64,000 nucleotides of DNA from Plasmodiophora brassicae (Eukaryota): positions 1,798,001-1,862,000 of the forward strand of contig CP145409.1 of NCBI GenBank assembly GCA_036867785.1. Reading direction: 5' to 3'. Numbering within the stretch: position 1 is the first letter of the stretch; each line of letters opens with the position of its first letter. Shown here piece after piece: positions 4,405-57,076 of this stretch. A program made the position numbers and the translations under genes. The notes under the pieces were generated by a model, which saw only the letters and a program-made list of their open reading frames with translations, did no database searches and had not been told where the DNA came from.

Positions 4405-5656
4405 ATGGAGCGGATTGCACTACGGGTGCGATGGAGTGGGCGGCTGTACGAGCTCGATGTCGACGGGCAGGATACGCTGCTGGACGTGAAGCGAGCGCTG
4501 TCGGAGCTGACGAACGTGCTGCCAGCGAGGCAGAAGCTGCTTATCAAGGATGTGACGACCGGGAAACCGGCGATGGATGGCACGATCGCACTAGCGTTCG
4601 CGCGGAAGAAGCCAGATGAGCCGATCGCCTGCGTTATGGTCGGTACGCCCGAGAAGGACATTATCGTGTACGATGTGGAGAGGGAGGAATCCGACGTCCT
4701 GAACGACCTGGATCTGGATTACTCGCGATCCGTCATCGATGCCGTGCATAACAACCCTGAGTACCATCAGTTAATCGAACAAGTGACCAGGAAAACGGAA
4801 CTGAACATCATTAATCCACTGCGACCTGGCAAACGGCTGCTTGTCCTTGATCTCGTATGTGTCGTTTAACGCTGTTATGTCCCTGGCCTCGAAGTGACAT
4901 CGCGTTCAGGACTATACATTGTTCGACATGAAGAGCTCGGCGTCCAACTTCCTGGATCTGAAGCGTCCGTTTACTGATGATTTCCTTAAGGTTGCCTATC
5001 AGCACTACGACATCTGCGTCTGGTCTCAGACGCATTGGAGATATCTGGTGGGTGCTGTGACAGGTCGTCGTAAGCCATCTTATTCGGTGAACAGGAGATG
5101 AAGCTGACGGAGCTTGGCATTCTTACCCATAACGAGTACCGTATCAGCTTCGTTCTGGACCGCACTTCGATGTTCTCGGTGAGCGGTATCGTCAAGGGCA
5201 AGTCGCGGAAGCACCAAGTGAAACCGCTGAAAGTGATATGGAACAAGTTCCCACAGTTCAATGCAAAGAACACGCTCCACATTGATGACCTCTGTAAGTT
5301 GACGTTCTGGGCATCCTCTCTCGCTCATCTGACATCTGCCGTATACAGCGAGAAATTTCGCCATGAACCCAGCTAATGGTACGCATTCCGTTCCGGGCTC
5401 TCGAGGTCCATGAAACCGATGCCGAATTGCGCATTTAGGACTCAAGATATCGGCGTTCCGAGACGCGCATCGTATGAAACTGACCGACAATGAGCTGCTC
5501 CACCTATCTGAGTACGTACAACATCTGTCAAGTGTAGGTCATGTTTGTCCTTGCCCGGCAATGTTGACTGAACGAAGTCACTGTAGCACGACGATTTCAC
5601 GAAGCTGGACCATAACAAGTGGAAGGAGATACTTCGAAAATCCAAGTAACGTTTAA
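4405..5656 (+). CDS. UBLCP1: ubiquitin-like domain-containing CTD phosphatase 1 (multi-exon)
   Basis: N-terminal UBL (LTNVLPARQKL), LLVLDL|DYTLFD DxDxT motif across an intron, ICVWSQT, VKPLKVIW and HIDDL motifs. Confidence 0.88.
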
Positions 5657-9120: not shown

Positions 9121-9445
9121 TCGAGACGAGCTCGACTTATCCTGACAATTTGGACACGGCTTGGTCGCTGTTCCACTCCTCAGGTCAGTTCTCAGACCAG
9201 ACATCGACATTCGATCCCGGTCCGCAGCGGCAAACGCGAATTTGCCTTCGTTGTACTTTGGCGGATCGTCGTCTGGGAACATCTTACCCGCCGTTTTCTT
9301 CGTCAGGGCGTGCTGCGTGCGTTTCTCAAGCTCGTCGAGGCGATTAGAGATCTGCGGCGACAGCATGAACGTGGATGTACGCGTTCTGGACGGGTCGCAG
9401 CGCCCAGCTGATGCCATACGTCGCCTGCGGGTTAATCGGAAGGTT
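9121..9445 (-). pseudogene. degenerate copy of the 5' region of the 5694-7619 gene, interrupted by the LTR element (continues from 14484)
   Basis: TFMLSPQISNRLDELEKRTQHALTKKTAGKMFPDDDP matches TFMLSPRISNRLDELEKRIQHDLTRKAVGKVFPDDDP; indels break the frame. Confidence 0.8.
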
Positions 9446-9613
9446 AATCGGGACACTGGTGCGACCTCGAGTCCGCAGAGTGCCTTAGATCAGCAATCAT
9501 AGGGCGCCTCCCACATATACCGCGCAACACTGCCGTACGGCGTCCGTGGCGCACCAATCATACATTCTGCTATCTGGCCTTGTCTGGTCTTGTCCGTGTC
9601 CTGCGTGTTAATT
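9446..9613 (+). repeat. 5' LTR (168 bp)
   Basis: AATCGGGACAC...GTGTTAATT, identical to 14311-14478. Confidence 0.95.
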
Positions 9614-9626
9614 GGTTTTGGGCCCA
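9614..9626 (+). promoter_or_regulatory. primer-binding site, copia/hemivirus type (anticodon arm of initiator tRNA-Met)
   Basis: GGTTTTGGGCCCA directly abuts the LTR; 12/13 match to the GGTTATGGGCCCA half-tRNAi-Met PBS. Confidence 0.65.
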
Positions 9627-9639
9627 TCCCAAGCCTTAC

Positions 9640-9800
9640 CCCTGTCCCTGTTCCTGTCCCCGTCCCTGTCCCCGTCCCTGTCCCTGTTCCTGCCCCAGCC
9701 CCAGTTCCCGTACTGTCCCGTGTCCCAGCCCGTGTCGTGATCCAGTTCGCGTTGTGACCGCCCGCGCCCCACGCTCGGTTTGTACCCGTCCCTGTCCCCC
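9640..9800 (+). repeat. degenerate 6-bp (CCTGTC/CCCGTC) repeats in the retroelement leader
   Basis: CCTGTCCCTGTTCCTGTCCCCGTCCCTGTCCCCGTCCCTGTC... between the PBS and the gag start. Confidence 0.75.
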
Positions 9801-9817
9801 TGCTCCCGCCGCCCGCA

Positions 9818-10765
9818 ATGGCGGAGGACTGGAACCAGATCGTCACAAACCTGAACTCTCAGATCCAGCACCTGCAACAGCAACAACAACAACAGCAGCA
9901 GCTTCTACAACAACAGCACGATCAACTGCTACAACAGCAACAACTACTGCAGCAGCAACCGTCCCCACAACAGCGAACGGTCTCACAGCATCATGTTTCC
10001 GAGCCCAAGGTCAAGCTCCCCCCCATCTACAACGGCGGCCGTGGAGAACTTCGCGGTTTCCTGAACCAAGTCAAGCTGGTTATCACCCAGCGGCCTGCCA
10101 CCTATGCGACCGACGCTCAGAAGGTCGCGCTGGTGGGACAGCTGCTGGGTGGTGATGCTCTTCGGTGGTTTAATCCGTTGTTCGAAAAGGACGACGCGGT
10201 GCTGACGGAGTTCGTCGCCTTTATCAAGGCCTTCAAGACAAGGTTCGGTGACCCTCATCTAGCCGAGACTGCGGCACGGAAGCTACAGCATCTTCGTCAG
10301 GGCCGAGGCACTGTCGCCCGCTTCGCGACAGAGTTCCAAAACCTGGTGGCGGACGCCGGGTTCAACGACTCAGCCTGCCGACACATGTTCCGCGCCGGCC
10401 TGTCCAGGGACGTGCAGTTCCTGCTGCTGTCCCTGCCCGTCGCCGAGACGCTTGACGAGCTTGTCATACAGGCAATCCGGTGTGACAACCGCCTGGCCGA
10501 GCACCGATCGACCACCGCCCTCGTTCCTGTCCCTGCTGCCTCCGCCGCCGCAGTGCCGTCCGCTCCTCCCCCAGCCCCGGCCGCCGCGGTTGGGGATCCC
10601 ATGGTTATCGACGCCGCGATCGGCGGTGGGCCCCGCGCGCCCTTAACCCAAGACGAGAAAGATCGCCGTCGTCGCGAAGGCCTATGCCTTTACTGCGGGG
10701 TGGCTGGCCATGTCGCAGTGTCCTGTCCCGTGCGTCCGCAGGGAAACGCCTCCCGGCGTGGCTGA
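9818..10765 (+). CDS. gag: Gag, Ty3/Gypsy (sushi/PEG10-like) type, with N-terminal poly-Gln and a CCHC zinc knuckle
   Basis: KLPPIYNG..ELRGFL, LLGGDALRWF, LRQGRGTVARFATEF, DPMVID, LTQDEKDRRRREGLCLYCGVAGHVAVSCP. Confidence 0.9.
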   Translation: MAEDWNQIVTNLNSQIQHLQQQQQQQQQLLQQQHDQLLQQQQLLQQQPSPQQRTVSQHHVSEPKVKLPPIYNGGRGELRGFLNQVKLVITQRPATYATDAQKVALVGQLLGGDALRWFNPLFEKDDAVLTEFVAFIKAFKTRFGDPHLAETAARKLQHLRQGRGTVARFATEFQNLVADAGFNDSACRHMFRAGLSRDVQFLLLSLPVAETLDELVIQAIRCDNRLAEHRSTTALVPVPAASAAAVPSAPPPAPAAAVGDPMVIDAAIGGGPRAPLTQDEKDRRRREGLCLYCGVAGHVAVSCPVRPQGNASRRG

Positions 10766-10787
10766 AATCCCGGTCGGTCGCCACGCC
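10741..10787 (+). promoter_or_regulatory. programmed -1 ribosomal frameshift signal
   Basis: G GGA AAC heptamer in the gag frame, a 7-nt spacer, then an 8-bp stem GGCGTGGC (10755-62)/GCCACGCC (10780-87); pol is in the -1 frame. Confidence 0.85.
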
Positions 10788-13700
10788 TACCAATACACCT
10801 GTTCCATCATGCAACCCCGACCACTTCTTTCCCGAGCCAAGTATGATTTCCGCGTCCACCAACCTCGTCGAGCACTTGGACCGTGTCCTAAGCATAGACG
10901 TGTCCCTTCAACTCGACAATGGCAAGACTGTACAGACGACGGCACTTATCGACTCAGGAGCAACCAACGACTTCATACACTCCGACTTCGCCCGCGCTCA
11001 CAACGTTCCGCTCACCAAGAAACCCGCACCGGTAGATCTGGAGGTAATTGACGGGCGGCGGCTACCGAAGGTGGCGCTGGAAACGGCCCCTGTCCGCCTC
11101 AGTATCGGCAACCACTCCGAATCGATCGTGCTGAACGTAATCGACTCCCCGCGATTCCCGATTATCCTCGGCATGACCTGGCTCTCAAGGCACAACCCGA
11201 GCATTAACTGGACACACCGAACGATGGAGATTACTCGTGTCGCTCAGGACGCCGCGCGCGAACAGAGCGAACCCAAGGAAGCCATCACAGCCCTAACCTT
11301 GCACGACAATGGCGTATTCTCTCAGCAACCAGACCCACCACCTCAAGACCTCTCGCCACCCACACGACACGAACGGCGGTCGAGGGCCCGTGTTGACAGC
11401 GGCAAGGTGCCCTACGCCGTTCCGCTTCCCGGGGATTGGAACCAAGCCCAGAGTCTCAAGCGTTGGCACCACCGCCTCGGCCACCGTAACCTGCGTGACG
11501 TCATCCTGATGGCAAATCATGACCTTACCGAATCCATGGAGATCCTGGCACAGAAGGTTGACAGGTTCTGCGAAGGGTGCGCTATCGCGAAAGCCAAGGA
11601 ACGTCCTTTCCCCTCGGAGTCCAAAGAAAAACAGTGGAACGTGCTCGAGAGAATCGACGTCGACGAATGCGGACCGCTTCCCGTCGCCTCACTCAAAGGG
11701 GAGCGATACTTTATCACGTTCACGGAATTTGCAACCAGGATGAAATTTACCTTCCTGTTGCACCACAAGAACCAGGCGCTGACCAAGTTCAAGGAGCTCA
11801 AGACTCGAATTGAGAATCGCCTGGAGAAATCCATTAAGATCCTCTTCGGCGACAACGATGGGGTATTCATCAACAACGAGTTCAAGGCGTTCTTGCAGGA
11901 CAACGGGATCGAGTGGAGATCAACGGTGGAGTATTCCTCCAAGCAGAACGGTGTCTCCGAACGGGGACACCTGACGCTCATGGACTCCGGTCGCGCAATG
12001 CTCGTACACGCAAGGCTCCCCAAGCAGTTCTGGGGACCCGCAATTCTGACTGCCAGCCAGGTCCATAATCTCTGCCCCCACCCACGCGATCCCTCGACCA
12101 CGCCCCATGAAATGCTGTCGCGCTCGAAACCTGATATCCGCTACCTTAGAACGTTCGGGTGCGACGCATATGGCTACGTCCCGTCCAGCCAGAGAACGAA
12201 GCTGGACCCACGCGCCGTGAAAGGCATCTTCATCGGATATGCAGATCACCAGAAAGGGTACGTCCTCTATCACCCTTCGTCCGGCCTGATCAAGGTGTAC
12301 CGCAGCGTGACGTTCAGCGAAGACAGCTTCGGCGGCCGCAGTGCGGACGACGCCCTCGCCGATCCCGAGGAACCTGAGTCTGGATACGACAGCGACTACG
12401 TTCCCTCCGGTGACGAACCCGCTGTCGAGGGGGCGCAGTCCGCCGCAGGCCCCAATGAGGATCCGCGACCTCCCACCGAACGAGCCCGGCGTCTCTCCCG
12501 CAAGCCAGACCGTTTAGGAGATCCCGTCCACCACGCCTGGATCGCGTCCCTGCAACCTACCAACGACGATCCTATTCACCACATGTGGATAGGTTCCACA
12601 CATCAATGCGACGACGACGATGACGCCGCGCTCAATGCAGATGACCCCGACACTCCAAACACATATGAAGACGCCATGGCAAGTCCCGAGGCAGAGTTCT
12701 GGACTAAGGCGATGGCCGATGAATTGAAGAGCCTGAAACAGCACAAGACATGGGAAGCCGTGGAGCGACTACCCGTCGGGGCACGCCCCATCGGATGCCG
12801 CTGGGTCTACAAGCGCAAGATCACCAAGTCAAGTCAGATCCCGCCGGACACCACCTGGGTTCTCCGCCATGACCCCGACGGTGTCACCTCCTACCGGTAC
12901 AAGGCTCGACTATGCATACTCGGCTACAGACAGCGCCAGGGGATCGACTACACGAACACCTATGCGCCAGTCGTCCGGAGCGACATCCTCCGTCTAGTAC
13001 TAGCCCTGTCCGTCCAAGACAAGGAGATCATCGCCGAGCAGATGGATGTGATGACCGCATTCCTCAACGCCCACCTCACCGAAGAGATCTACATGGACTC
13101 CCCGAAAGGGATGAAGGCCAGAACCCGTTTCGTCAAGCTCCTACGATCGATCTATGGCCTGAAACAGGCCCCAAGAGAATGGTTCAAGGTCATCGACGCC
13201 TTCCTCGTTAACGAATGCGGGTTCCAACGAGCCAAGTCCGCATCGTGCTTGTACTTCAAACGTGGTCCAACTGGACGGCTCGTCATTGTTGGGGTCTACG
13301 TCGATGATATTCCCATCGTCGGACATCCCGAACTCGTACAGGAAACCAAGTCAGCCCTCTCGAAGAGATTCAAGATGTCGGACATGGGAGAGCTTCAATC
13401 AGTCATTGGCTTCGACGTCGATAGACAAGGTAGATCGGTGTTCCTGTCGCAAGAACGCTACACGAAAACTATCCTCGACACCTACGGCATGGCCGAATCG
13501 CGCCCCGTCTCGACACCGGCAGATGCGAACTTGAAGTTATCCACATCACTGTGCCCGCAGAACCAGGCCGATCGCGAACTTGCCGCCTTAGAAGGCCAGC
13601 GCATCAACTATCGAGCAGCGGTAGGTCACCTAATGTGGCTGCTGCACACCCGGCCAGACATCGCCTATGCGGTGAACGAGGTCTCCCGATACGTGCAAGA

Positions 13701-14367
13701 CCCAGGGCCAGCGCACTTCGTCGCGCTGAAGCGAGTCTTCAGGTACCTCAACGGCACTCGCAACTACGGCCTCCTGTTCGAAGGAGGTGGGGAAACGGCC
13801 ACACCGCTCCTGGTCGGCTACTCCGATTCTGATTGGGGTGGAGACCTCGACACACGACGATCGACTTCGGGGTGCGTGTTCCTTCTGAATGGCTGCCCGG
13901 TTTCATTTCGCTCTAAGAAGCAGACCACGGTCGCGTTATCGTCGTGCGAGGCGGAGACGGTGGCGTCAACACTCGCGGCAACAGAAGGCGTCTGGTTGCG
14001 CAATGTGCTGGACGAACTAGGTTTTCCACAAGCTCAGCCTACACCTCTACACGTAGACAATCAGGGGGCGATCGCGTTCGCCAACAGCGAAATCAACCAC
14101 AGCAAGATGAAACATCTCGCGCTCAAGGACCACTTCGTCAGAGAACTGGTGGCATCCAACCAGATCAAGGTGCACTACGTCCGCTCGTGCGAGAACCTCG
14201 CCGACATCTTCACGAAACCGCTCGGAAAGCACAAGTTCGTAGAATTCCGTGCGGCCCTCAAGTGCGTACCGCATCCCCACATGAACTTGGACTCTCAGGT
14301 CGAGGGGGGGAATCGGGACACTGGTGCGACCTCGAGTCCGCAGAGTGCCTTAGATCAGCAATCATAG
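10741..14367 (+). CDS. pol: Pol (by frameshift): aspartic protease, GAG-pre-integrase/HHCC, rve integrase, Copia-type RT, RNase H
   Basis: ALIDSGAT...IILGMTWLSRHNPSINW; WHHRLGH..CEGC; DECGP/GDND/QNGVSER; GYADHQKGY; YKARL..GIDYTNTYAPV; QMDVMTAFLN; YGLKQAPREW; YVDDI; DSDWGGD; ADIFTKPL. Stop lies inside the 3' LTR. Confidence 0.93.
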   Translation, partial: GKRLPAWLKSRSVATPTNTPVPSCNPDHFFPEPSMISASTNLVEHLDRVLSIDVSLQLDNGKTVQTTALIDSGATNDFIHSDFARAHNVPLTKKPAPVDLEVIDGRRLPKVALETAPVRLSIGNHSESIVLNVIDSPRFPIILGMTWLSRHNPSINWTHRTMEITRVAQDAAREQSEPKEAITALTLHDNGVFSQQPDPPPQDLSPPTRHERRSRARVDSGKVPYAVPLPGDWNQAQSLKRWHHRLGHRNLRDVILMANHDLTESMEILAQKVDRFCEGCAIAKAKERPFPSESKEKQWNVLERIDVDECGPLPVASLKGERYFITFTEFATRMKFTFLLHHKNQALTKFKELKTRIENRLEKSIKILFGDNDGVFINNEFKAFLQDNGIEWRSTVEYSSKQNGVSERGHLTLMDSGRAMLVHARLPKQFWGPAILTASQVHNLCPHPRDPSTTPHEMLSRSKPDIRYLRTFGCDAYGYVPSSQRTKLDPRAVKGIFIGYADHQKGYVLYHPSSGLIKVYRSVTFSEDSFGGRSADDALADPEEPESGYDSDYVPSGDEPAVEGAQSAAGPNEDPRPPTERARRLSRKPDRLGDPVHHAWIASLQPTNDDPIHHMWIGSTHQCDDDDDAALNADDPDTPNTYEDAMASPEAEFWTKAMADELKSLKQHKTWEAVERLPVGARPIGCRWVYKRKITKSSQIPPDTTWVLRHDPDGVTSYRYKARLCILGYRQRQGIDYTNTYAPVVRSDILRLVLALSVQDKEIIAEQMDVMTAFLNAHLTEEIYMDSPKGMKARTRFVKLLRSIYGLKQAPREWFKVIDAFLVNECGFQRAKSASCLYFKRGPTGRLVIVGVYVDDIPIVGHPELVQETKSALSKRFKMSDMGELQSVIGFDVDRQGRSVFLSQERYTKTILDTYGMAESRPVSTPADANLKLSTSLCPQNQADRELAALEGQRINYRAAVGHLMWLLHTRPDIAYAVNEVSRYVQDPGPAHFVALKRVFRYLNGTRNYGLLFEGGGETATPLLVGYSDSDWGGDLDTRRSTSGCVFLLNGCPVSFRSKKQTTVALSSCEAETVASTLAATEGVWLRNVLDELGFPQAQPTPLHVDNQGAIAFANSEINHSKMKHLALKDHFVRELVASNQIKVHYVRSCENLADIFTKPLGKHKFVEFRAALKCVPHPHMNLDSQVEGGNRDTGATSSPQSALDQQS

Positions 14368-14478
14368 GGCGCCTCCCACATATACCGCGCAACACTGCCG
14401 TACGGCGTCCGTGGCGCACCAATCATACATTCTGCTATCTGGCCTTGTCTGGTCTTGTCCGTGTCCTGCGTGTTAATT
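14311..14478 (+). repeat. 3' LTR (168 bp)
   Basis: Identical to the 5' LTR and preceded by a G-rich polypurine tract. Confidence 0.95.
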
Positions 14479-14614
14479 AGGTTCTTCACGATCGATTGCG
14501 CTCTCGTAGTGGCTTCAGGCTTGACGCCATTCCAGATTCTGATCGCGAATCTGACAGCCGTACCCCCGCCCAGATTCGAACGCGTTCTCAGGCACGCGGT
14601 GCCGGTCGTATCCA

Positions 14615-20857: not shown

Positions 20858-21039
20858 CAAACTCAATACATGTGGCGAATGAGTAGGTCAAATCGTGGGT
20901 GCGGGGGGTGTGGGTCAGCAGTCGGCACGCCGCTGCCGCAGTGTTGCCCCGCCAGTGGGAGCTACATCTCGTGCCTGCCACGGAGAAACGGGTGCAGCTC
21001 TGACGGGGTCGCCCGCCCGTCGCCATTTCATTCGGCTAA

Positions 21040-24000
21040 ATGGACGGCGCCCTGCGGCGGTCGTCCCGGGCGGTCAGGGCGCACGTGGGGCGGGCGTCGA
21101 CGCATGCGCATCGGAGCGCGGGCCATGCGGCGCCGAGGACGCTGGCCGCGCTGACGATGTCGGATGTGAACGACGTGGTCGTTGCGGTGGCGCGGCACCC
21201 GCGATCGCTGGACCGACTCGTCGATGTGGATCGCCAGCTCGACGGGTTGCTGCATCTGGGAGGCGACCTGCGTCGCCTGCCGCATATCGCATCGCTCCTC
21301 TCCAAATTGTGCACCGTGCGCAACAGTACGTAACAGGCGACGGCAACGCATCGTGGCCGGACCTCATCGGCGTGCCCCGTTCCTCAGATCACGTCAACGT
21401 GTCAAGCATGGTGACGCGAATATGTCAGGCGGCCGCTAATCACGTTGCTGATTACGATAGCAAGAGTCTGGCGATGATGGCAACGGCCGCTGCGCGCGCC
21501 TGTCCGTCGCTGCCTGGTCTCGTCGAACAGTTCGCCAGGCAGGTCGCCCACCAATCTGCCTCCTCACTGGGCTCCCAGGCTTTGTCGAACTCGATCCACG
21601 CCCTGGCGAAATGCAACGCCCGGGATGATGCCCTGTGGAGGGCACTCGCGGGACTCGTCTGTCAGATGTGCGAATCGTTCAAGGCGCAGGAAATCGCGAA
21701 TACGGCATGGGCGTTCGCAACAGTAGGAATCCGGGACGATGCGTTGTTTGAATGCCTGTCTCGTCGGGCTCTCCAAGTTGGCAGCGAGTTCACATCCCAA
21801 GGCATATCAACGACGGCGTGGGCGTTCGCGACATCGGGTATCAAGAACGACGCGCTGTTCAGCAAGTTCTCCGCGCTCGCTCGAGATCTGGTCGGCGGTT
21901 TCAACCAGCAACAGGTTGCCAATACGGCGTGGGCGTTCGCGACGTTGGGCATCAAGGATGACGTTCTGTTCGACGAGCTATCCCGAAGGGCGATCGGGGC
22001 AACCGCGGAGTTCACCGCCCAAGCAATTGCCAACACGGCATGGGCATTTGCCACGTTGGCAATCAAGGACGATGCCCTGTTCAAGGCTCTTTCAACCCGG
22101 GCGTTCGACGTCGCCCGTGATTTCACGGCGCAAGGCGTTGCGAATTTGGCTTGGGCGTTCGCATCGGCGGACTTCAGGGACGACGATTTGTTCTTCTTGC
22201 TGTCGAGTCGCGCGAGACATGTCTGCCGTCAATTCATCGATAAGGGCATCGCGAACACGGCATGGGCGTTCGCCAAGCTGGGCATCAAAGACGACATGCT
22301 GTTCAGCGCCCTGTCCCGCCGGGCACAGGACCTGGCGCATGTGTTCTGCTCGCAGAACATCGCCAACACCGCTTGGTCGTTCGCAACGCTAAAGATCAGG
22401 GACGACGCACTCTTCAGCAAGTTCGCAACGCGTTTCCAGGAGGTCTTACCGACGACCAATGTGCAAGAGGTTGCGAATACGGCCTGGGCGTTTGCTACGC
22501 TGGGGATCAACGATGGCGTCCTATTCCACGGCCTGTCGGGACGGGCACGTCAGCTGTTACCCGAGTTCAACTCGCAGGCCATCGCCAACCTGTCGTGGGC
22601 GTTCGCGACAATGGCGATTAGGGATGAGGCACTGTTCGACGACCTAGGACGCCGTGCACGAGAAATCCTACCCACGTTCAGCGCGCAGGGCGTCTCCAAC
22701 ACGGCCTGGGCATATGCCACGTTGAATATCAAGGACGTCCCTTTGTTCAATGACCTTTCACAACGGGCACAAGAGATCGTTCGGGAATTCGGCCCGCAGA
22801 ACGTTGCCAATACGGCCTGGGCGTTCGCCCGGTTGAAGTTCAAGGACGACTCCCTGTTCAGTCGCTTCCGAATTCGGGCGCACGACGTGATCAACGATTT
22901 CAAGGGGCAAGAAGTTGCCAACACGGCGTGGGCGTTCGCCAAGCTGACCCTGAAAGACGATGCGCTGTTCCATGATTTCTCACGGCGGGCGCAGGCCGTC
23001 ATCCAGGACCTGAACGCGCAAGAGACCACCAACATGGCGTGGGCGTTCGCCGCACTGGACATCCAGGACCTGACGTTGCTCGACGCGCTCGTCCGTCGCG
23101 CCAACGAATTGATCGACAGCTTCAAGGCCCAGGAGGTCGCCAACATGTCGTGGGCGTTCGCAAAGCTGACCGTGAAGGCTCTGCCGGACCACAGCCTGTT
23201 CAGCAGCCTGTCGCGGCGCGCCCAGGAGGTTTTCCAGCAGATGAAAGCGCAAGAGGTCTCGAATACGGCATGGGCGTTCGCATCCTCCGACATCATCGAC
23301 GATGCCCTGTTCAATGTCCTGTCGCAACGCGCCCAGGTGCTCAGCGACGAGTTCACCGCACAGGCAGTGGCCAACACGATCTGGGCATTCGCAACGGTTT
23401 CCATCGTCAACGACAAAAAGCTGTTCGATGCCATGTGCCGACGCGCGGTCGACGTTATGCACGATTTCTCTACGCAAGAGGTCGCCAACATGGCATGGGC
23501 GTTCGCCGTCATGGAGGTTCCGGCCGACGACGCCGTAACGCGATCACTGCTGCTTCGGGCGATCCAACTCGCCGACCAGCTCAGCGTTGTCGAACAACGC
23601 CAAATGCACCAATGGCGACTCGCTGTTGGTGTCGATCGCCTGGACAAGATTGCAGCCGACCTTGACGTTGCCGACAGTGATATGTTTTCCAACTGGGCGC
23701 TGTCCCTGCGTGAGGCACCCCTGAATGCATCGTTGCTCGAGGACGACGTCTTCGCCAGCCTGCAACGTGCCGACCTGCAGCGCAACTGGATTTGCCCGGA
23801 AACCTGCTACTCCATCGATATGGCCTGCCCTGAGCACCGGCTGGCCATCGAGGTCAATGGCCCGTCGCACTTCGTCGTGTCCGGTCAGCGCCAGCGCCTA
23901 AACGGCTCATCCATCCTCAAGCGAAGCCTGCTGAAACAGTACGGGTGGACCGTTGTCGATGTCAACTACTACGACTGGGATACATTGCAGACCGACGTGG

Positions 24001-24059
24001 ACAAACGCCAGTTCCTCGTGTCTGCGCTTGAACAAGCAGTACCCGCCGTCTTCAACTAA
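21040..24059 (+). CDS. heptatricopeptide (37-aa) helical-repeat protein with C-terminal RAP domain; intron 21326-21387
   Basis: ~18 repeats of xQxxANTAWAFA at 37-aa spacing; RAP motif IDMA...LAIEVNGPSHF...LKRSLLKQYGWTVVDVNYYDW; Arg-rich N-terminal exon splices in frame. Confidence 0.88.
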
Positions 24060-24099: not shown

Positions 24100-26061
24100 C
24101 TATGATCTTGGTGCAGGAACGGCCGGCGATGGCAAGTACCGGTACGCCTTCTGAGGCAGCGTCGTACTGCGCCGGTCCATCCGTTGCAGGTGAAGCTCGG
24201 TCTGCTTGCCAACGACGACATCGATCAGGTCGAACCCATCGCCAATGACGATCTGCTTGGACAATGGCGTTCTTCGCGGACGACGATGACGAAGTCGACG
24301 AGTGGCGCCAACGACCCGCTCGCGAATCGTCATCAACGCGCGCCGCGTCTGCCTGACCTGAGCCTCCAGTCGACTGAGCATTGTGGTCGGCAACGAAGGC
24401 TCGGGCTCCTGAACGGCCACCTTCCGCCGACGCAGTTGCCGATGATGATGGTGGTGGACCACGCGAGGTTTCGTATCGACGGGCTGGTTCTGCTGGCGGG
24501 CGACAAGGTCGGCTATGGTGACCGTGCACTCCTGGACGGCCATCGTGATCTTCTGGAGCGTGTCCTTCGTCATCTCTGCTGCGCTCTGCACGGTAGCCGC
24601 CAGTGCCGATGAGTCGTGAGGCGGTTCCCCTGAAGTGGACATCTCCATGATGTTCTCGTGCGCGTGTCGCTCACGGTCCCGCTCCCGAAGATCATCGATC
24701 TCTTTACGAATCGCCGCCGTCTGCGCCCGTAGCTCATCGCGAAGCTCGATGAGCGCCGTGTTCGCGTTTGGTGGGGTTGACGATATGTTCAGCGCTGCCA
24801 TGTGATCCAGCAGATTGTTCAAGCGCGTCGCCAGCATCATGTCGCTGATGCTCGGCGGGGCCTGCACGACCTGGACCGGAGGAAACGACGTCGGCGGCGG
24901 CGACGGGTGCGCAAGCGTCTGCTCGCGAACGTGTGTGGCGAATTTCCCGATCTGATGCACTCGCTTGTCGCAGGCCTGGCAATGGGATTTCGCGCAGGAC
25001 GCGCACGGGATCGTGGCACGCTCCACCTCACAGTTGGCGCACTGATCCCCAGCGACGACCATCGGCACCCGATCGTGCGCCCTGAACTTCGGAGCGGCAT
25101 GCATGCGCTGATCGCAGGACGCGCACAACGGCATATCGCAGGTGCGGCATTGAATGCTTGGGGGCGCTCTCTCACAGTTCCTGCAGGGCAATGATCCGGT
25201 CGTTGCTGCTGGTGACGGTGCTGGCGCTGGTGCCTTTAACGGTGCTGCTGCTGATGATGATGTTGGTGATGATGACGGTGCCTTTAACGGTGTTGGTGCG
25301 GGTGCGGGTGCGGGTGTCTTTAACGGTGAGGGTGCGAGTGCTGATGCTGATGGTAGTGCAGCTGGCGCCGCTGAGGGTGATGCTCGCATGTGGGTCCTGA
25401 ATTTGGCAGTTTGATGGAGGCGCGTGTCGCAAGCGTTGCAGTACAGCTTCTTGCATTCCTTGCAGGAGGTGATTCCAGGTTGCATCTCACAGTTGTCGCA
25501 GACGGTAGACGAAGAAGAAGGTCGGTTGACGGGTGGCGAAGCGACGGTCAGAGGCGTCTTCTTCACCGGTGCCCGTTTGTGCGACTGGAATTTCGTCATC
25601 CGGTGCAGGCGTGTATCGCATCCGGTACACAGCGTCTGTGCACAATCGTCGCATCGGACGGCTGCACTCGACACCTGACAGTTGTTGCATGTCGTGGAAT
25701 CGGTCGAAGCAGGCGATGATGACTGGGGCTTGGGGTCCGCTGGCGACAGCGACGGCGGTCTAGACGACGTCGATGCAATTGGCTGACGCGTGTGCGATAT
25801 GAAACGGGATATACGATGCAAGCGCGAATCGCATTCGTCGCACAATGGTTTGTTGCATTCCGGGCAGTCGATGGTGGCCGGCGACACCTGGCAGTTCTGG
25901 CAGCTGGGCGTTGACGGTTCCGCGAACGGCGACAGCGCGTGGCCCTGCCGGGATTTCGTCCTGTGTACGCCCGCGGAACAGTCGGCGCAGAACGCTTTGC
26001 CGCATTCCCGGCAGCTGATCGTGGCGGGATCGCCCTCACAGTTCGCGCACAGCGCCGGCAT
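24100..26061 (-). CDS. protein with six B-box zinc fingers and a C-terminal coiled coil
   Basis: Six CxxC-x8-CxxC-x4-CxxC-x4-H-x7-H units separated by Pro/Ser/Ala linkers. Confidence 0.85.
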   Translation of the reverse strand: MPALCANCEGDPATISCRECGKAFCADCSAGVHRTKSRQGHALSPFAEPSTPSCQNCQVSPATIDCPECNKPLCDECDSRLHRISRFISHTRQPIASTSSRPPSLSPADPKPQSSSPASTDSTTCNNCQVSSAAVRCDDCAQTLCTGCDTRLHRMTKFQSHKRAPVKKTPLTVASPPVNRPSSSSTVCDNCEMQPGITSCKECKKLYCNACDTRLHQTAKFRTHMRASPSAAPAALPSASALAPSPLKTPAPAPAPTPLKAPSSSPTSSSAAAPLKAPAPAPSPAATTGSLPCRNCERAPPSIQCRTCDMPLCASCDQRMHAAPKFRAHDRVPMVVAGDQCANCEVERATIPCASCAKSHCQACDKRVHQIGKFATHVREQTLAHPSPPPTSFPPVQVVQAPPSISDMMLATRLNNLLDHMAALNISSTPPNANTALIELRDELRAQTAAIRKEIDDLRERDRERHAHENIMEMSTSGEPPHDSSALAATVQSAAEMTKDTLQKITMAVQECTVTIADLVARQQNQPVDTKPRVVHHHHHRQLRRRKVAVQEPEPSLPTTMLSRLEAQVRQTRRALMTIRERVVGATRRLRHRRPRRTPLSKQIVIGDGFDLIDVVVGKQTELHLQRMDRRSTTLPQKAYRYLPSPAVPAPRS

Positions 26062-26564
26062 CGTTAACTGTGTGCACACCCCCCTCCCCCCTCATCTGGG
26101 TACGGTACCCCGGTCGAACCTGGCATCAGCGCTAGACTGCAACCAACAAGAGATCCCCCCGGCCTGACGGGTCGAGATAACCTCGGTATCATATGAAACC
26201 GACGATAAATGTTCGAGCAGGTCGACGGCGCTGGACTCTGTGCCAGTACTGGGTAGGCGCCTTGAGTCAGTATTTACATTCGAAGCCCTCAGGCAGGCTG
26301 TATTTGCTCTGCCACCGTTCGTTTGGACGCACGCCAAATAGGGGTGGTTGGTGGGAGCACATAGCACGCCAGGCAGGTGACAGCAGTCCAAGCGACAGAC
26401 GTTGGCTGCGCCCTTGTGGACTTCGACCGCTTCTCGACGACCCCTGTCATGCGGGAGATTGTCGCCGCACGACAATGGGGGCAGGTCCACAAATAGCGCT
26501 TGATGGTACTAAATCCGGGGTACGACGTTCGTTGCGGGAGTGACAGTGTGTCTGAGGGTCGATC

Positions 26565-33877: not shown

Positions 33878-33948
33878 GCATCGTTAGTTTAGTGGTAAAA
33901 TGTCTCGCTTCCAACGAGACGTCCCGCGTTCGATTCGCGGACGATGCA
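33878..33948 (+). tRNA. tRNA-Gly(TCC)
   Basis: GCATCGTTAGTTTAGTGGTAAAATGTCTCGCTTCCAACGAGACGTCCCGCGTTCGATTCGCGGACGATGCA: cloverleaf, followed by a T-rich Pol III terminator. Confidence 0.95.
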
Positions 33949-55517: not shown

Positions 55518-57076
55518 ATGGCGAAGGTTGGTTTGCGACCAGGAAACCCCTCGTCGTTCAACGCGCTTACACGGCACAGTGCACCGGGGGCGACGATAAT
55601 CTCGAAGAGCACCCTGGACAGGATCCGGCAATCCGTTGCACCTCGAGGCGCCGCATCCACCGATGAACGCCTCCATAAGGTGCGCCCTGCCTTTGTGCCA
55701 GCGCTATGATCGATCTAACACGACGATGCGTTCCCCAGCTATTGGCGTTGAAGGAGCGATCGGCGGCCCGGGTGAAGACCTGGGGAAACACGCTGGAGGC
55801 GTCGCGTCAGAAGTTGCAACGCGAACGCGCGAAACGTCTCGAAGAGGCCGAAGCGGCGCAGGTCCTCATCGACATTGCGGAACAGAAGCTTCAGGAAGCC
55901 AATCGCAGAGCGGTGATCGACCGAGCCGACCGCGCCCGGTTCGAGGACAGCGATCCGGTCAAGCGGCTGGCCAGCGCGATGCTGCTGAGCGACATCATGG
56001 TGGACCGGGACGTCTGCCGCCGCGTCAAGAACGCTATTCGGCAGGAGGAGGAGGCGACCGAGGAACGGTTCCAGGCGCACCTCAAGGCACAGTTAGAGGT
56101 CTCCCAGGTGACTGAACATGCACAGCACGCGAAGCGCCATGAACGACAGCTTGAGGCGGCGGTTGTTATTCGTCAGCAGAAGAAGGAGTTGGAAGCGAGA
56201 CGCGCGCAAGCGATCGAGGAGGAACGACGAGAAGGTGACCGGCTGCGACAGCAAGCGGAACGGGAACGGGTTTGCGAGGAGGAAGAGGATCGGCAGGTCG
56301 CGTTGGAGCGCGCTGCTGCCATGCAGCAGCAGGTTAAGGCGAACCAGCAGCGAATCGAGGAGAAACGGCTGGCGAAGCTCGCCGAGGTCGAGGCCCTGGA
56401 GCAGGCGAAACGCAGGAGCGAGGAGCGGCAGCGGTTGACGGATTTGCTGAAGTCGAAGAACGAGGAGCGCGCCAGGGTCAAGTTGCAGATTCGGGAGGCG
56501 ATCAACGAACGGGTTAGCCGGGAGCAACGGGAGCGCCAGGCCGCGGTTGAGCATCGCGAGGAGCTGGCCATGCAGCAGACGAATGACGTGGAGAAGGAGA
56601 GGGAGGCGGCTCGGAAGCGGAAGCAGGCCGATCTGCTGGCCCAGATGAAGGCGCAGATCGCGGCACAGATCAGCGATATCAAGGCGCGGAAGGATGCAGA
56701 GCGCCTGGAGAACGAGCAGGCGCTCGCCAGGGCGATACAGGAAGCCCAGGCGTACCAGAGAGAAGAGCAGGAGAAACTGGCCGTGTCCAGGCAGAAGGCG
56801 CAAGACCTGGCGAAGTTCCATCGTGCTCAGATCGCGTCCAGGTCGGCGCTTAAGTCGTCGATATCGGACAAGGACCCAGGGACGGAGACACAGAAGGTGA
56901 ACGCCGCACAGGACGCCCAGAAGTTCAGACAGTTCGCCAAGCAGGTCACCGAAGCGTACGCCAAAGAGGGCAAGTCGACGCTGCCGATCGTGCTTGCACT
57001 GAAGCGAATGGACCTCAGTGACGAGGTCCCTGGACAGCGACAGCGGCAACCTGCTCACGACACCTGCCCTTATTGA
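55518..57076 (+). CDS. cilia-associated TPH-domain protein, CFAP210/CCDC173-like (intron ~55680-55738)
   Basis: SAARVKTWGNTLE...LIDIAE...AVIDRA...VKRLASAMLLSDIMVDRD followed by a long E/R/Q coiled coil. Confidence 0.7.

Follow-up and report, generated by a model that had tools for sequence, protein, structure and literature searches.

Can the capsid and protease of one family of retrotransposons be joined to the enzymes of another and still give a working element? This question is raised by positions 9446-14478 of a 64,000-nt stretch of Plasmodiophora brassicae contig CP145409.1 (the whole of which we refer to as the window), which represent one complete long terminal repeat (LTR) retrotransposon with two unbroken frames between the LTRs. 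An original prediction, made from the letters alone, had read the element as a chimera of Ty3/Gypsy and Ty1/Copia: a PEG10-like Gypsy Gag and a Gypsy-type protease, followed downstream of ~11450 by enzymes that are Copia in sequence and in order, with the junction in a linker at ~11220-11450, the whole being taken as a recombinant lineage. This reading of the modules, of the junction and of the lineage was borne out. At a rough probability of 80%, we consider the element to be an intact, probably autonomous LTR retrotransposon of a lineage with a Copia backbone, in which a chromovirus gag, -1 frameshift site and protease replaced the Copia cassette. The LTRs are equal at 168 of 168 positions, AGGTT is present on both sides as target-site duplication (TSD), and gag and pol are both open, as had been noted before. 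The motifs quoted at the time are all found in the translations (KLPPIYNG, LRQG, DPMVID, LTQDEKDRRRREGLCLYCG, ALIDSGAT, IILGMTWLSRHNPSINW, WHHRLGH, QKGY, YKARL, YVDD and ADIFTK), and the catalytic motifs, none of which is missing from the element, are invariant in an alignment of the family (A2).

Origin of the modules

The gag product was matched by the Pfam families Retrotrans_gag (5.5e-14), DUF4939 and Ty3_capsid, and its residues 143-229 match the capsid domain structure of PEG10 (7lga, E 4.4e-11). The Copia-type gag families (PF14223 Retrotran_gag_2, UBN2, TYA and related ones) gave no score for the element in the Pfam scan even at E<=10; canonical Copia P0164, which served as control, was matched by Retrotran_gag_2 (2.2e-12) and Pol_BBD (6e-17). 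A HMMER search with gag in 1.84 billion representatives yielded 7896 matches at E<=1e-3, of which 264 reached E<=1e-30, and nearly all homologues were stand-alone proteins of 200-400 amino acids (aa). Among the 150 listed, seven were longer than 700 aa and none of the seven contained RVT_2. Four of them carried Gypsy markers, namely RVT_1 (P0032 and P0089), SH3_Tf2-1 with Chromo (P0064) and a full chromovirus pol (P0115); the others were P0148, with only gag and RVP_2, and two repeat proteins. Where a gag homologue is joined to a polymerase, the latter is that of a chromovirus (Gypsy). Longer fused forms were also sought in a word-indexed database, where 0 of 7992 candidates scored, the index probably having been swamped by poly-Q words. 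In the precomputed Pfam list, the canonical Copia polyprotein P0220 (1518 aa) carries both PF14223 (the Copia gag) and PF03732 (Retrotrans_gag).

Similar results were obtained for the protease, which was matched by RVP_2 (1.3e-08), Asp_protease_2 and gag-asp_proteas, and for which the Copia-type family (Pol_BBD, PF22936) gave no match in the element even at E<=10. A passage in PMC2774666 reports that the ILG motif sets non-Copia proteases apart from those of Copia; the element has the ILG motif and not the Copia variant. A search of the PDB sequences with the protease returned no solved relative.

Within pol, whose product comprises 1227 aa when counted from the ATG at 10684, the protease (PR, residues 79-186) is followed by the integrase (IN, 256-549), the reverse transcriptase (RT, RVT_2 at 722-946) and then the RNase H (RH), thus in the order PR-IN-RT-RH. 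The integrase residues H262, H267, C296, C299, D327, D390 and E426 are invariant in A2. RVT_1, RT_RNaseH, Integrase_H2C2 and Chromo were not found in the element by the Pfam scan, and a search of the ESM Atlas with the PR-IN part recovered only generic Copia integrase clusters.

The division between the two halves is clearest when the modules are compared one by one using BLAST. Against the chromovirus proteins P0115, P0153 and P0089, gag showed 30-36% identity (E 2e-34 to 1.4e-45) and the protease 33-42% (E 1.3e-17 to 1.4e-26), and no match better than E 0.02 was found for IN, RT and RH against six chromovirus proteins. Against canonical Copia P0164, P0166, P0168, P0171 and P0173 the picture was reversed: identities were 37-51% for IN, 38-48% for RT and 45-53% for RH, and gag and the protease had no match. 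The Gypsy homology stops around pol residue 195 and the Copia homology begins around residues 245-256 (gag_pre-integrs starts at 256), which places the junction at nt ~11270-11450 and within the range that had been proposed. A search with pol residues 60-340, which lie across the PR-IN junction, recovered nine proteins, of which only P0152, an RVT_2 protein, spans the junction (91% coverage). The other eight are RVT_1 polyproteins, seven with a chromodomain, and match the protease part only, at 29-43% identity.

Relatives with the same architecture

The junction is not restricted to the window. To define the relatives of pol we used the best 120 matches to residues 60-1200. Four of these (P0161, P0162, P0163 and P0152) show 47-54% identity over 96-98% of the query, and the Copia gag and protease families are absent from them. 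PF22936 and/or PF14223 are carried by 107 of the 120, and none of these 107 has a Gypsy-type protease family; another nine are short at the N-terminus (<=993 aa) and thereby uninformative. In a search with hmmscan, Gypsy-type protease families were found in the same four proteins and in L001, a locus that emerged from a scan of metagenomes. That scan matched 593 stretches, three of which were confirmed: the full element L001 and the RT-RH fragments L002 and L003. Scans of viral and genome contig collections for related loci gave none that was confirmed.

L001 (4769 bp) encodes a gag of 307 aa, matched by Retrotrans_gag, Ty3_capsid and DUF4939, and an overlapping pol in the -1 frame, in which RVP_2, gag_pre-integrs, rve, SH3_retrovirus and RVT_2 were found. 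Compared to the window element, the identity is 35% for gag (E 3e-55) and 43% for pol. P0152, P0161, P0162, P0163 and L001 share the architecture at pol identities of 43-54%. L001 is AT-rich as compared to the 58% GC of the window, and the two hosts are therefore probably distant. P0165 is almost identical to the pol of L001 over the part that is covered.

P0019, a member of the gag clade described below (383 aa), lacks the GN tail near the end of gag and continues in frame into the first half of a protease. This half is 43-46% identical to members of the lineage as compared to 37% for the best Gypsy protease, which ties the gag clade to the pol lineage, be it weakly. In some relatives gag and PR may thus share a single frame; alternatively, P0019 may have acquired a frameshift mutation.

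Connection between gag and pol

The gag and pol frames appear to be joined by a chromovirus-style candidate -1 frameshift site, the heptamer G GGA AAC. An identical heptamer is present in L001 (1536-1542), in the same register and also 15 nt before the gag stop, despite the gag identity of 35%. It is followed after 5 nt by a hairpin that encloses the stop codon (z = 0.12), similar to the arrangement in the window. Signals for programmed -1 frameshifting consist of a heptamer X XXY YYZ in the upstream frame and a structure that follows after a spacer of 5-9 nt; such a heptamer is found here in both elements, but the hairpins do not surpass shuffled sequence in stability. A GN tail within the last 14 residues was found in 6 of 15 gags of the clade and, outside the clade, in 34 of 128 gags of this family. 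Given its presence in the latter, the frameshift signal seems to be a property of chromovirus gags that moved together with the module.

The primer-binding site and the number of crossovers

In L001 the motif GGTTATGAGCCC lies 54 nt before the gag start codon and aligns with GGTTTTGGGCCC, which directly follows the 5' LTR of the window element. In all three annotated initiator tRNA genes of E. coli, nt 30-41 (the anticodon arm) are exactly reverse-complementary to the 12-mer of L001, which has no further match in that 49-kb E. coli locus. The anticodon arm is conserved among initiator tRNAs. Half-tRNA priming from the anticodon stem-loop is a property of the hemiviruses among the Pseudoviridae and the Metaviridae use the 3' end of the tRNA, as stated in a passage of PMC1181622 and in PMC8515867. 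The half-tRNA-like primer site suggests that the region of the LTR and primer site derives from Copia. In that case a cassette would have been replaced, and the second of two junctions would lie in the low-complexity leader (9631-9817). The Copia backbone suggested by these data would consist of the LTR ends, the half-tRNA-like primer site, the integrase, the RVT_2 reverse transcriptase, the RNase H and the polypurine tract.

A single crossover could also have produced a hybrid, in which one template switch between co-packaged RNAs connected a chromovirus 5' half (U5, primer site, gag and protease) to a Copia 3' half (IN-RT-RH, polypurine tract and U3). It is consistent with this scenario that the homology maps one junction only (PR|IN), that the frameshift signal moved with gag, as judged from the distribution of the GN tails, and that the leader between primer site and gag is of low complexity and thereby uninformative. 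Nevertheless, we regard a single crossover as unlikely. The exact complementarity of the L001 12-mer to the initiator tRNA anticodon arm, found with two changes in the window, would point to the priming mode of Pseudoviridae and not to that of Metaviridae, and the hybrid would presumably have been left with mismatched R regions for strand transfer. A two-junction cassette replacement is thus more likely than a simple head-to-tail fusion.

Phylogenies

Trees were made for gag, pol and protease, all of which are unrooted. The gag tree made with FastTree contained 151 rows, from which the repeat proteins P0011 and P0026 were excluded and in which long rows were trimmed to the gag part. The window element and L001 fell in a clade of 17 rows (support 97) with all six Gypsy-linked rows outside. 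A second tree, made with IQ-TREE, comprised 43 rows (13 from the clade, the six Gypsy-linked ones and 24 random ones), P0014, P0020, P0027 and P0086, which belong to the clade but are fragmentary, having been dropped. Here, the 13-row clade was recovered with an ultrafast bootstrap (UFBoot) of 100 and an SH-aLRT of 99, again with all six Gypsy-linked gags outside; the window element and L001 occupy separate sub-branches within it.

In the pol tree made with FastTree (119 rows, with three dropped for a coverage below 700 aa) the lineage and the truncated P0165 formed a clade, with the canonical P0164 as sister. In the IQ-TREE analysis (26 rows) the support was 85/74 for the six chimera pols alone, 100/100 when P0164 was included and 100/99 when P0166, P0167 and P0169 were included as well. 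Gag forms its own clade (100/99) and pol is placed among canonical Copia; the protease tree lacks resolution. The simplest reading of these trees would be that a canonical Copia ancestor captured a chromovirus gag-protease module once, and that gag and pol then diverged together over a long time.

One could also imagine that no recombination occurred and that a deep-branching Copia lineage kept an ancestral, Gypsy-like gag and protease, from which the canonical Copia versions diverged later. The capsids of both families are thought to be homologous (PMC8515867; a passage in PMC5718144 points the same way), the trees are unrooted and PF03732 can score on a Copia gag, as in P0220. Vertical descent, however, does not fit a gag that is 30-36% identical to that of chromoviruses (E down to 1e-45) when the RT and IN of the same proteins show no detectable similarity, nor a set of chimera pols that lies inside a 100/99 clade with the canonical P0164, P0166, P0167 and P0169, with over 100 canonical Copia sequences outside. 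Such ancestral retention is in our view very improbable.

Presence in other sequencing runs and age of the insertion

Sequencing runs were sampled for words of 9300-14600, at least half of which were present in 20 runs from 10 studies. Contigs were compared from four runs of four studies (X1, X2, X9 and X12). A single 4501-nt contig of X9 covers 9931-14431 with five differences, a 3664-nt contig of X12 covers 10811-14472, and the junction is bridged by contigs of X1 (10366-11442) and X2 (10569-11407). The region of 10700-11500, for which an assembly chimera had been considered in the original prediction, is thus spanned by independent contigs.

DNA without the element was recovered as well, in the form of joints 9445->14518 (X1 and X2) and 9445->14570 (X12), which are not base-precise empty sites, as 34-86 nt past the TSD are also skipped or unknown. 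The flanks of the element-free allele differ at 9337, 9346, 9353, 9408, 14556 and 14565 and by a 4-nt deletion at 9375. These differences, together with the 34-86 nt that are skipped or replaced to the right of the TSD, indicate that the haplotypes or strains differ beyond the insertion. In X1 the variant right-flank contig has a depth of 63.6 of 124.8, a split that would fit a heterozygous insertion. In addition, there are contigs in which the LTR edge borders on unrelated sequence (behind 14479 for X9 and X12, before 14310 for three contigs of X2), and such differing flanks point to other insertion sites. Diverged copies are also present, for instance on a contig of X2 with 65 differences in 698 nt. 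The word depth in X1 was 198-413 for internal contigs and 61 for a flank contig, depth being no measure of copy number.

The empty-site-like allele and the several different flanks suggest recent mobility. Recent transposition had been derived before from the identical LTRs; the insertion indeed looks recent in view of the empty-site-like allele, but the identity of a 168-bp LTR is by itself a weak clock. The members of the lineage are only 43-54% identical in pol and ~35% in gag, from which it follows that the recombination is old and that only the insertion of this copy looks recent. The element had also been called functional, which its intactness, identical LTRs, empty-site-like allele and several flanks make plausible.

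The possibility that we are dealing with an artefact or a dead structure, either a false join in the assembly or a piece of Gypsy that lies nested in a Copia element and happens to have an LTR on each side, should be considered given the reports of complex and nested structures (passages in PMC3248453 and PMC5445492) and the fact that the 64,000-nt window holds only one copy of the element. The frame is nevertheless unbroken from protease to RNase H, contigs from the runs of four studies bridge 10569-11442, and the insertion has identical LTRs, a clean TSD and an empty-site-like allele. The junction recurs in relatives that are 43-54% identical, and the divergence of these independent records rules out a misassembly or other artefact, to which we attach practically no probability. 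A Gmr1-like Ty3/Gypsy element, in which a Gypsy-type gag and protease likewise occur with the integrase upstream of RT, is ruled out to the same extent by enzymes that are Copia by sequence: the RT is RVT_2 (1.3e-58) without RVT_1 match, IN, RT and RH are 37-53% identical to canonical Copia without significant similarity to Gypsy, and the integrase has gag_pre-integrs and SH3_retrovirus domains instead of Integrase_H2C2 or Chromo.

Observations that weigh against a recombinant Copia lineage

Several observations reduce our confidence in the reading as a Copia-backbone lineage with a captured chromovirus module. The physical linkage of this gag to this pol is seen in two elements only, those of the window and L001, and the other 11-15 members of the gag clade were placed by phylogeny alone. 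L001 is itself a damaged copy, as its RNase H end is broken and out of frame (~4560-4742) and only 144 aa of RH align. Considering that P0220 carries PF03732 next to PF14223, the PF03732 label by itself is not specific for Gypsy. With respect to the trees, the 'nested' position depends on where the root is placed, P0148 was counted as Gypsy-linked on its protease only (gag and RVP_2), and the monophyly of the chimera pols is supported by only 85/74. Of the 14 inner branches of the protease tree (17 rows, 131 columns), 12 are open, and two changes are needed to accommodate the chimera label. As for the signals in the nucleotide sequence, the hairpins of the window and L001 do not exceed shuffled sequence in stability (z -1.3, -1.9 and 0.12), the candidate primer site of the window has 2 of 12 mismatches to the initiator tRNA of E. 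coli, a bacterial stand-in for the host tRNA, and the LTRs end in AAT...ATT instead of the usual TG...CA.

Layout of the element and its surroundings

The coordinates of the features are given in Table 1. The LTR termini (9446-9448 and 14476-14478) form a 3-nt inverted repeat, AAT...ATT, of which the end at 14478 is backed by the contigs that diverge at 14479. In A2, five of five pols end in V-E-(G/R)-G-(N/S). The corresponding codons in the window (14295-14310, GTC GAG GGG GGG AAT) contain the polypurine tract, which makes it a coding tract that is conserved at both levels. The 10-mer GGTTAATCGG occurs twice, 12 nt apart, at 9430-9439 and 9442-9451. The second copy extends over the TSD into the LTR, of which it includes the initial six bases, and since it spans the TSD-LTR boundary, the target site before insertion resembled that boundary. 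This could be due to chance, to a target preference or to microhomology.

The window has 58% GC and long uninterrupted open reading frames (ORFs), and the neighbouring ORFs are ordinary eukaryotic genes according to Pfam. It also contains three tRNA-Gly genes, at 1358-1429 and 1684-1754 on the minus strand and at 33878-33948 on the plus strand; two are GCC copies, 255 nt apart, and one is UCC.

Table 1. Coordinates of the retrotransposon features and of neighbouring ORFs within the 64,000-nt window
Feature	Position	Strand	Basis or remark
Left TSD copy AGGTT, 5 bp	9441..9445	+	Equals 14479-14483
5' LTR, 168 bp, ends AAT...ATT, not TG...CA	9446..9613	+	Identical to 14311-14478
Candidate primer-binding site GGTTTTGGGCCC, directly after 5' LTR	9614..9625	+	Aligns with GGTTATGAGCCC at L001 584-595
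C/T-rich low-complexity leader with CCCTGT-like repeats, in 5' untranslated region	9631..9714	+	Read in sequence; skipped as repeat in contig comparison
gag ORF, 315 aa: Gln-rich N-terminus, Ty3/PEG10-type capsid, one CCHC zinc knuckle (nt 10685-10726)	9818..10765	+	Pfam, PEG10 capsid match
pol frame, -1 relative to gag, 280 nt overlap with gag	10486..14367	+	Enters 3' LTR by 57 nt
Candidate -1 frameshift heptamer G GGA AAC, in gag register	10741..10747	+	15 nt before gag stop; -1 shift enters pol frame
Hairpin enclosing gag stop codon, 7 nt after heptamer	10755..10787	+	z -1.3 (90-nt stretch), -1.9 (65-nt stretch)
Gypsy-type aspartic protease, LIDSGAT active site, ILG motif	10918..11241	+	pol residues 79-186; 38-43% identity to chromovirus proteases
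Variable linker with Gypsy-to-Copia junction	11270..11450	+	Length and sequence vary in A2
Copia-type integrase: HHCC finger, D,D35E core, SH3-like domain	11449..12330	+	gag_pre-integrs 256-303, rve 326-418, SH3_retrovirus 481-549
Copia-type RT, YVDD at residues 872-875	12847..13521	+	RVT_2 1.3e-58, residues 722-946
RNase H, DSDW ... ADIFTK	13801..14223	+	Conserved columns in A2
Polypurine tract GAGGGGGGG, adjoins 3' LTR	14302..14310	+	Within codons for conserved pol C-terminus VEGG
3' LTR, 168 bp	14311..14478	+	Identical to 5' LTR; contigs of other runs diverge at 14479
Right TSD copy AGGTT	14479..14483	+	Direct reading
FAST_1/RAP-domain protein ORF	20883-24059	+	Pfam
ORF with five B-box zinc fingers	24100-26091	-	Pfam
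TPH-domain protein ORF	55679-57076	+	Pfam

Proposed life cycle and implications

The arrangement of the modules suggests how the element might operate, in the same way as other LTR retrotransposons. Transcription would begin in the 5' LTR, and most ribosomes would yield the 315-aa Ty3/PEG10-like Gag. A minority would slip by -1 at G GGA AAC (10741-10747) and produce Gag-PR-IN-RT-RH, by which the Copia enzymes, fused to Gag, could enter the Gypsy-type capsid. The polyprotein would then be cleaved by the Gypsy-type protease, reverse transcription would be primed beside the LTR, probably by a fragment of initiator tRNA-Met, and Copia integrase would insert the cDNA with a 5-bp duplication.

A broader proposal, to which we give about even odds, is that we are looking at a long-lived and still mobile clade that represents a true recombinant of Pseudoviridae and Metaviridae, in which a Copia replication backbone is packaged in a chromovirus capsid, processed by a protease of Metaviridae and dosed by the chromovirus -1 frameshift signal. 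The clade would be undescribed as a lineage and would encompass at least 13 gag and 6 pol clusters (at a resolution of 50-90% identity) from hosts whose base composition differs strongly. Open-access full text yielded no account of a Copia element that has a Gypsy gag and protease, a scope that leaves out subscription journals, Repbase, GyDB, REXdb and supplements, and similar elements could be listed in the supplementary tables of PMC5445492 and PMC3248453.

RT phylogeny and domain order are the basis on which the superfamilies of LTR retrotransposons, as well as the virus families Pseudoviridae and Metaviridae, are regarded as distinct lines of vertical descent, a division that is blurred by the lineage of the window. 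Its existence would mean that these families can trade the module for structure and processing as a whole and that the resulting element still works. In that sense, the lineage may serve as a natural experiment that separates contacts internal to the module (Gag-RNA, protease-cleavage sites) from those across modules (Gag-Pol incorporation, primer choice, LTR-end recognition). On the practical side, it constitutes a trap for classifiers that label elements by hidden Markov models of gag or protease.

Comparison with known systems

The element resembles Ty1/Copia in its PR-IN-RT-RH order, the RVT_2 reverse transcriptase, the gag_pre-integrs/rve/SH3_retrovirus integrase, the ADIFTK end of the RNase H and the 5-bp TSD. 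It may also resemble the hemiviruses of that group in a primer-site-like motif that is complementary to the anticodon arm of initiator tRNA (that of E. coli as stand-in, with 2 of 12 mismatches). It differs in that gag and protease are not of the Copia type and are encoded in separate frames joined by a candidate -1 frameshift. The frameshift in Ty1 is a +1 shift. The separate frames of the window element are unlike the gag-pol strategies of Copia that are named in a passage of PMC5580714, in which one ORF, splicing, a frameshift (in Ty1) or readthrough of a stop codon is used.

With the chromoviruses of Ty3/Gypsy the element shares the Retrotrans_gag/Ty3_capsid/DUF4939 capsid, the single CCHC knuckle, the RVP_2-type protease with ILG motif and a gag that stops a few codons past the GN tail. 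Unlike these, it lacks RVT_1, RT_RNaseH, Integrase_H2C2 and a chromodomain, and has its integrase before RT. Judged by sequence, the element thus is a Ty1/Copia element by its enzymes and not by its gag and protease, and a chromovirus by its structural genes and not by its enzymes. PEG10 is a host gene that represents a domesticated Ty3/Gypsy capsid. The likeness to the Gag of PEG10/sushi-ichi concerns the capsid domain (7lga), with the difference that the Gag of the window belongs to a mobile element that has LTRs and a polymerase.

Gmr1, described by Goodwin and Poulter in 2002, is said in the title to be Gypsy-like, and its enzymes are assumed from that title only to be of the Gypsy type. 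Compared on this basis, the two elements have in common the Gypsy-type structural genes and an integrase upstream of RT, but the enzymes of the window element are Copia. A precedent for domain exchange between Copia and Gypsy is provided by the red-alga element of Peddigari et al. (2008), which going by the title reportedly has a Gypsy-like integrase; there the integrase was exchanged, whereas here the exchange concerns gag and protease, next to a Copia integrase. In fungi, the 'complex transposons', described in a passage of PMC3248453 as multiple insertions into one locus, form no coherent lineage, unlike the window element. Finally, modular and reticulate evolution of LTR elements is treated as an accepted idea in a passage of PMC2774666. 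The principle is therefore not new, but the particular stable combination found here appears to be.

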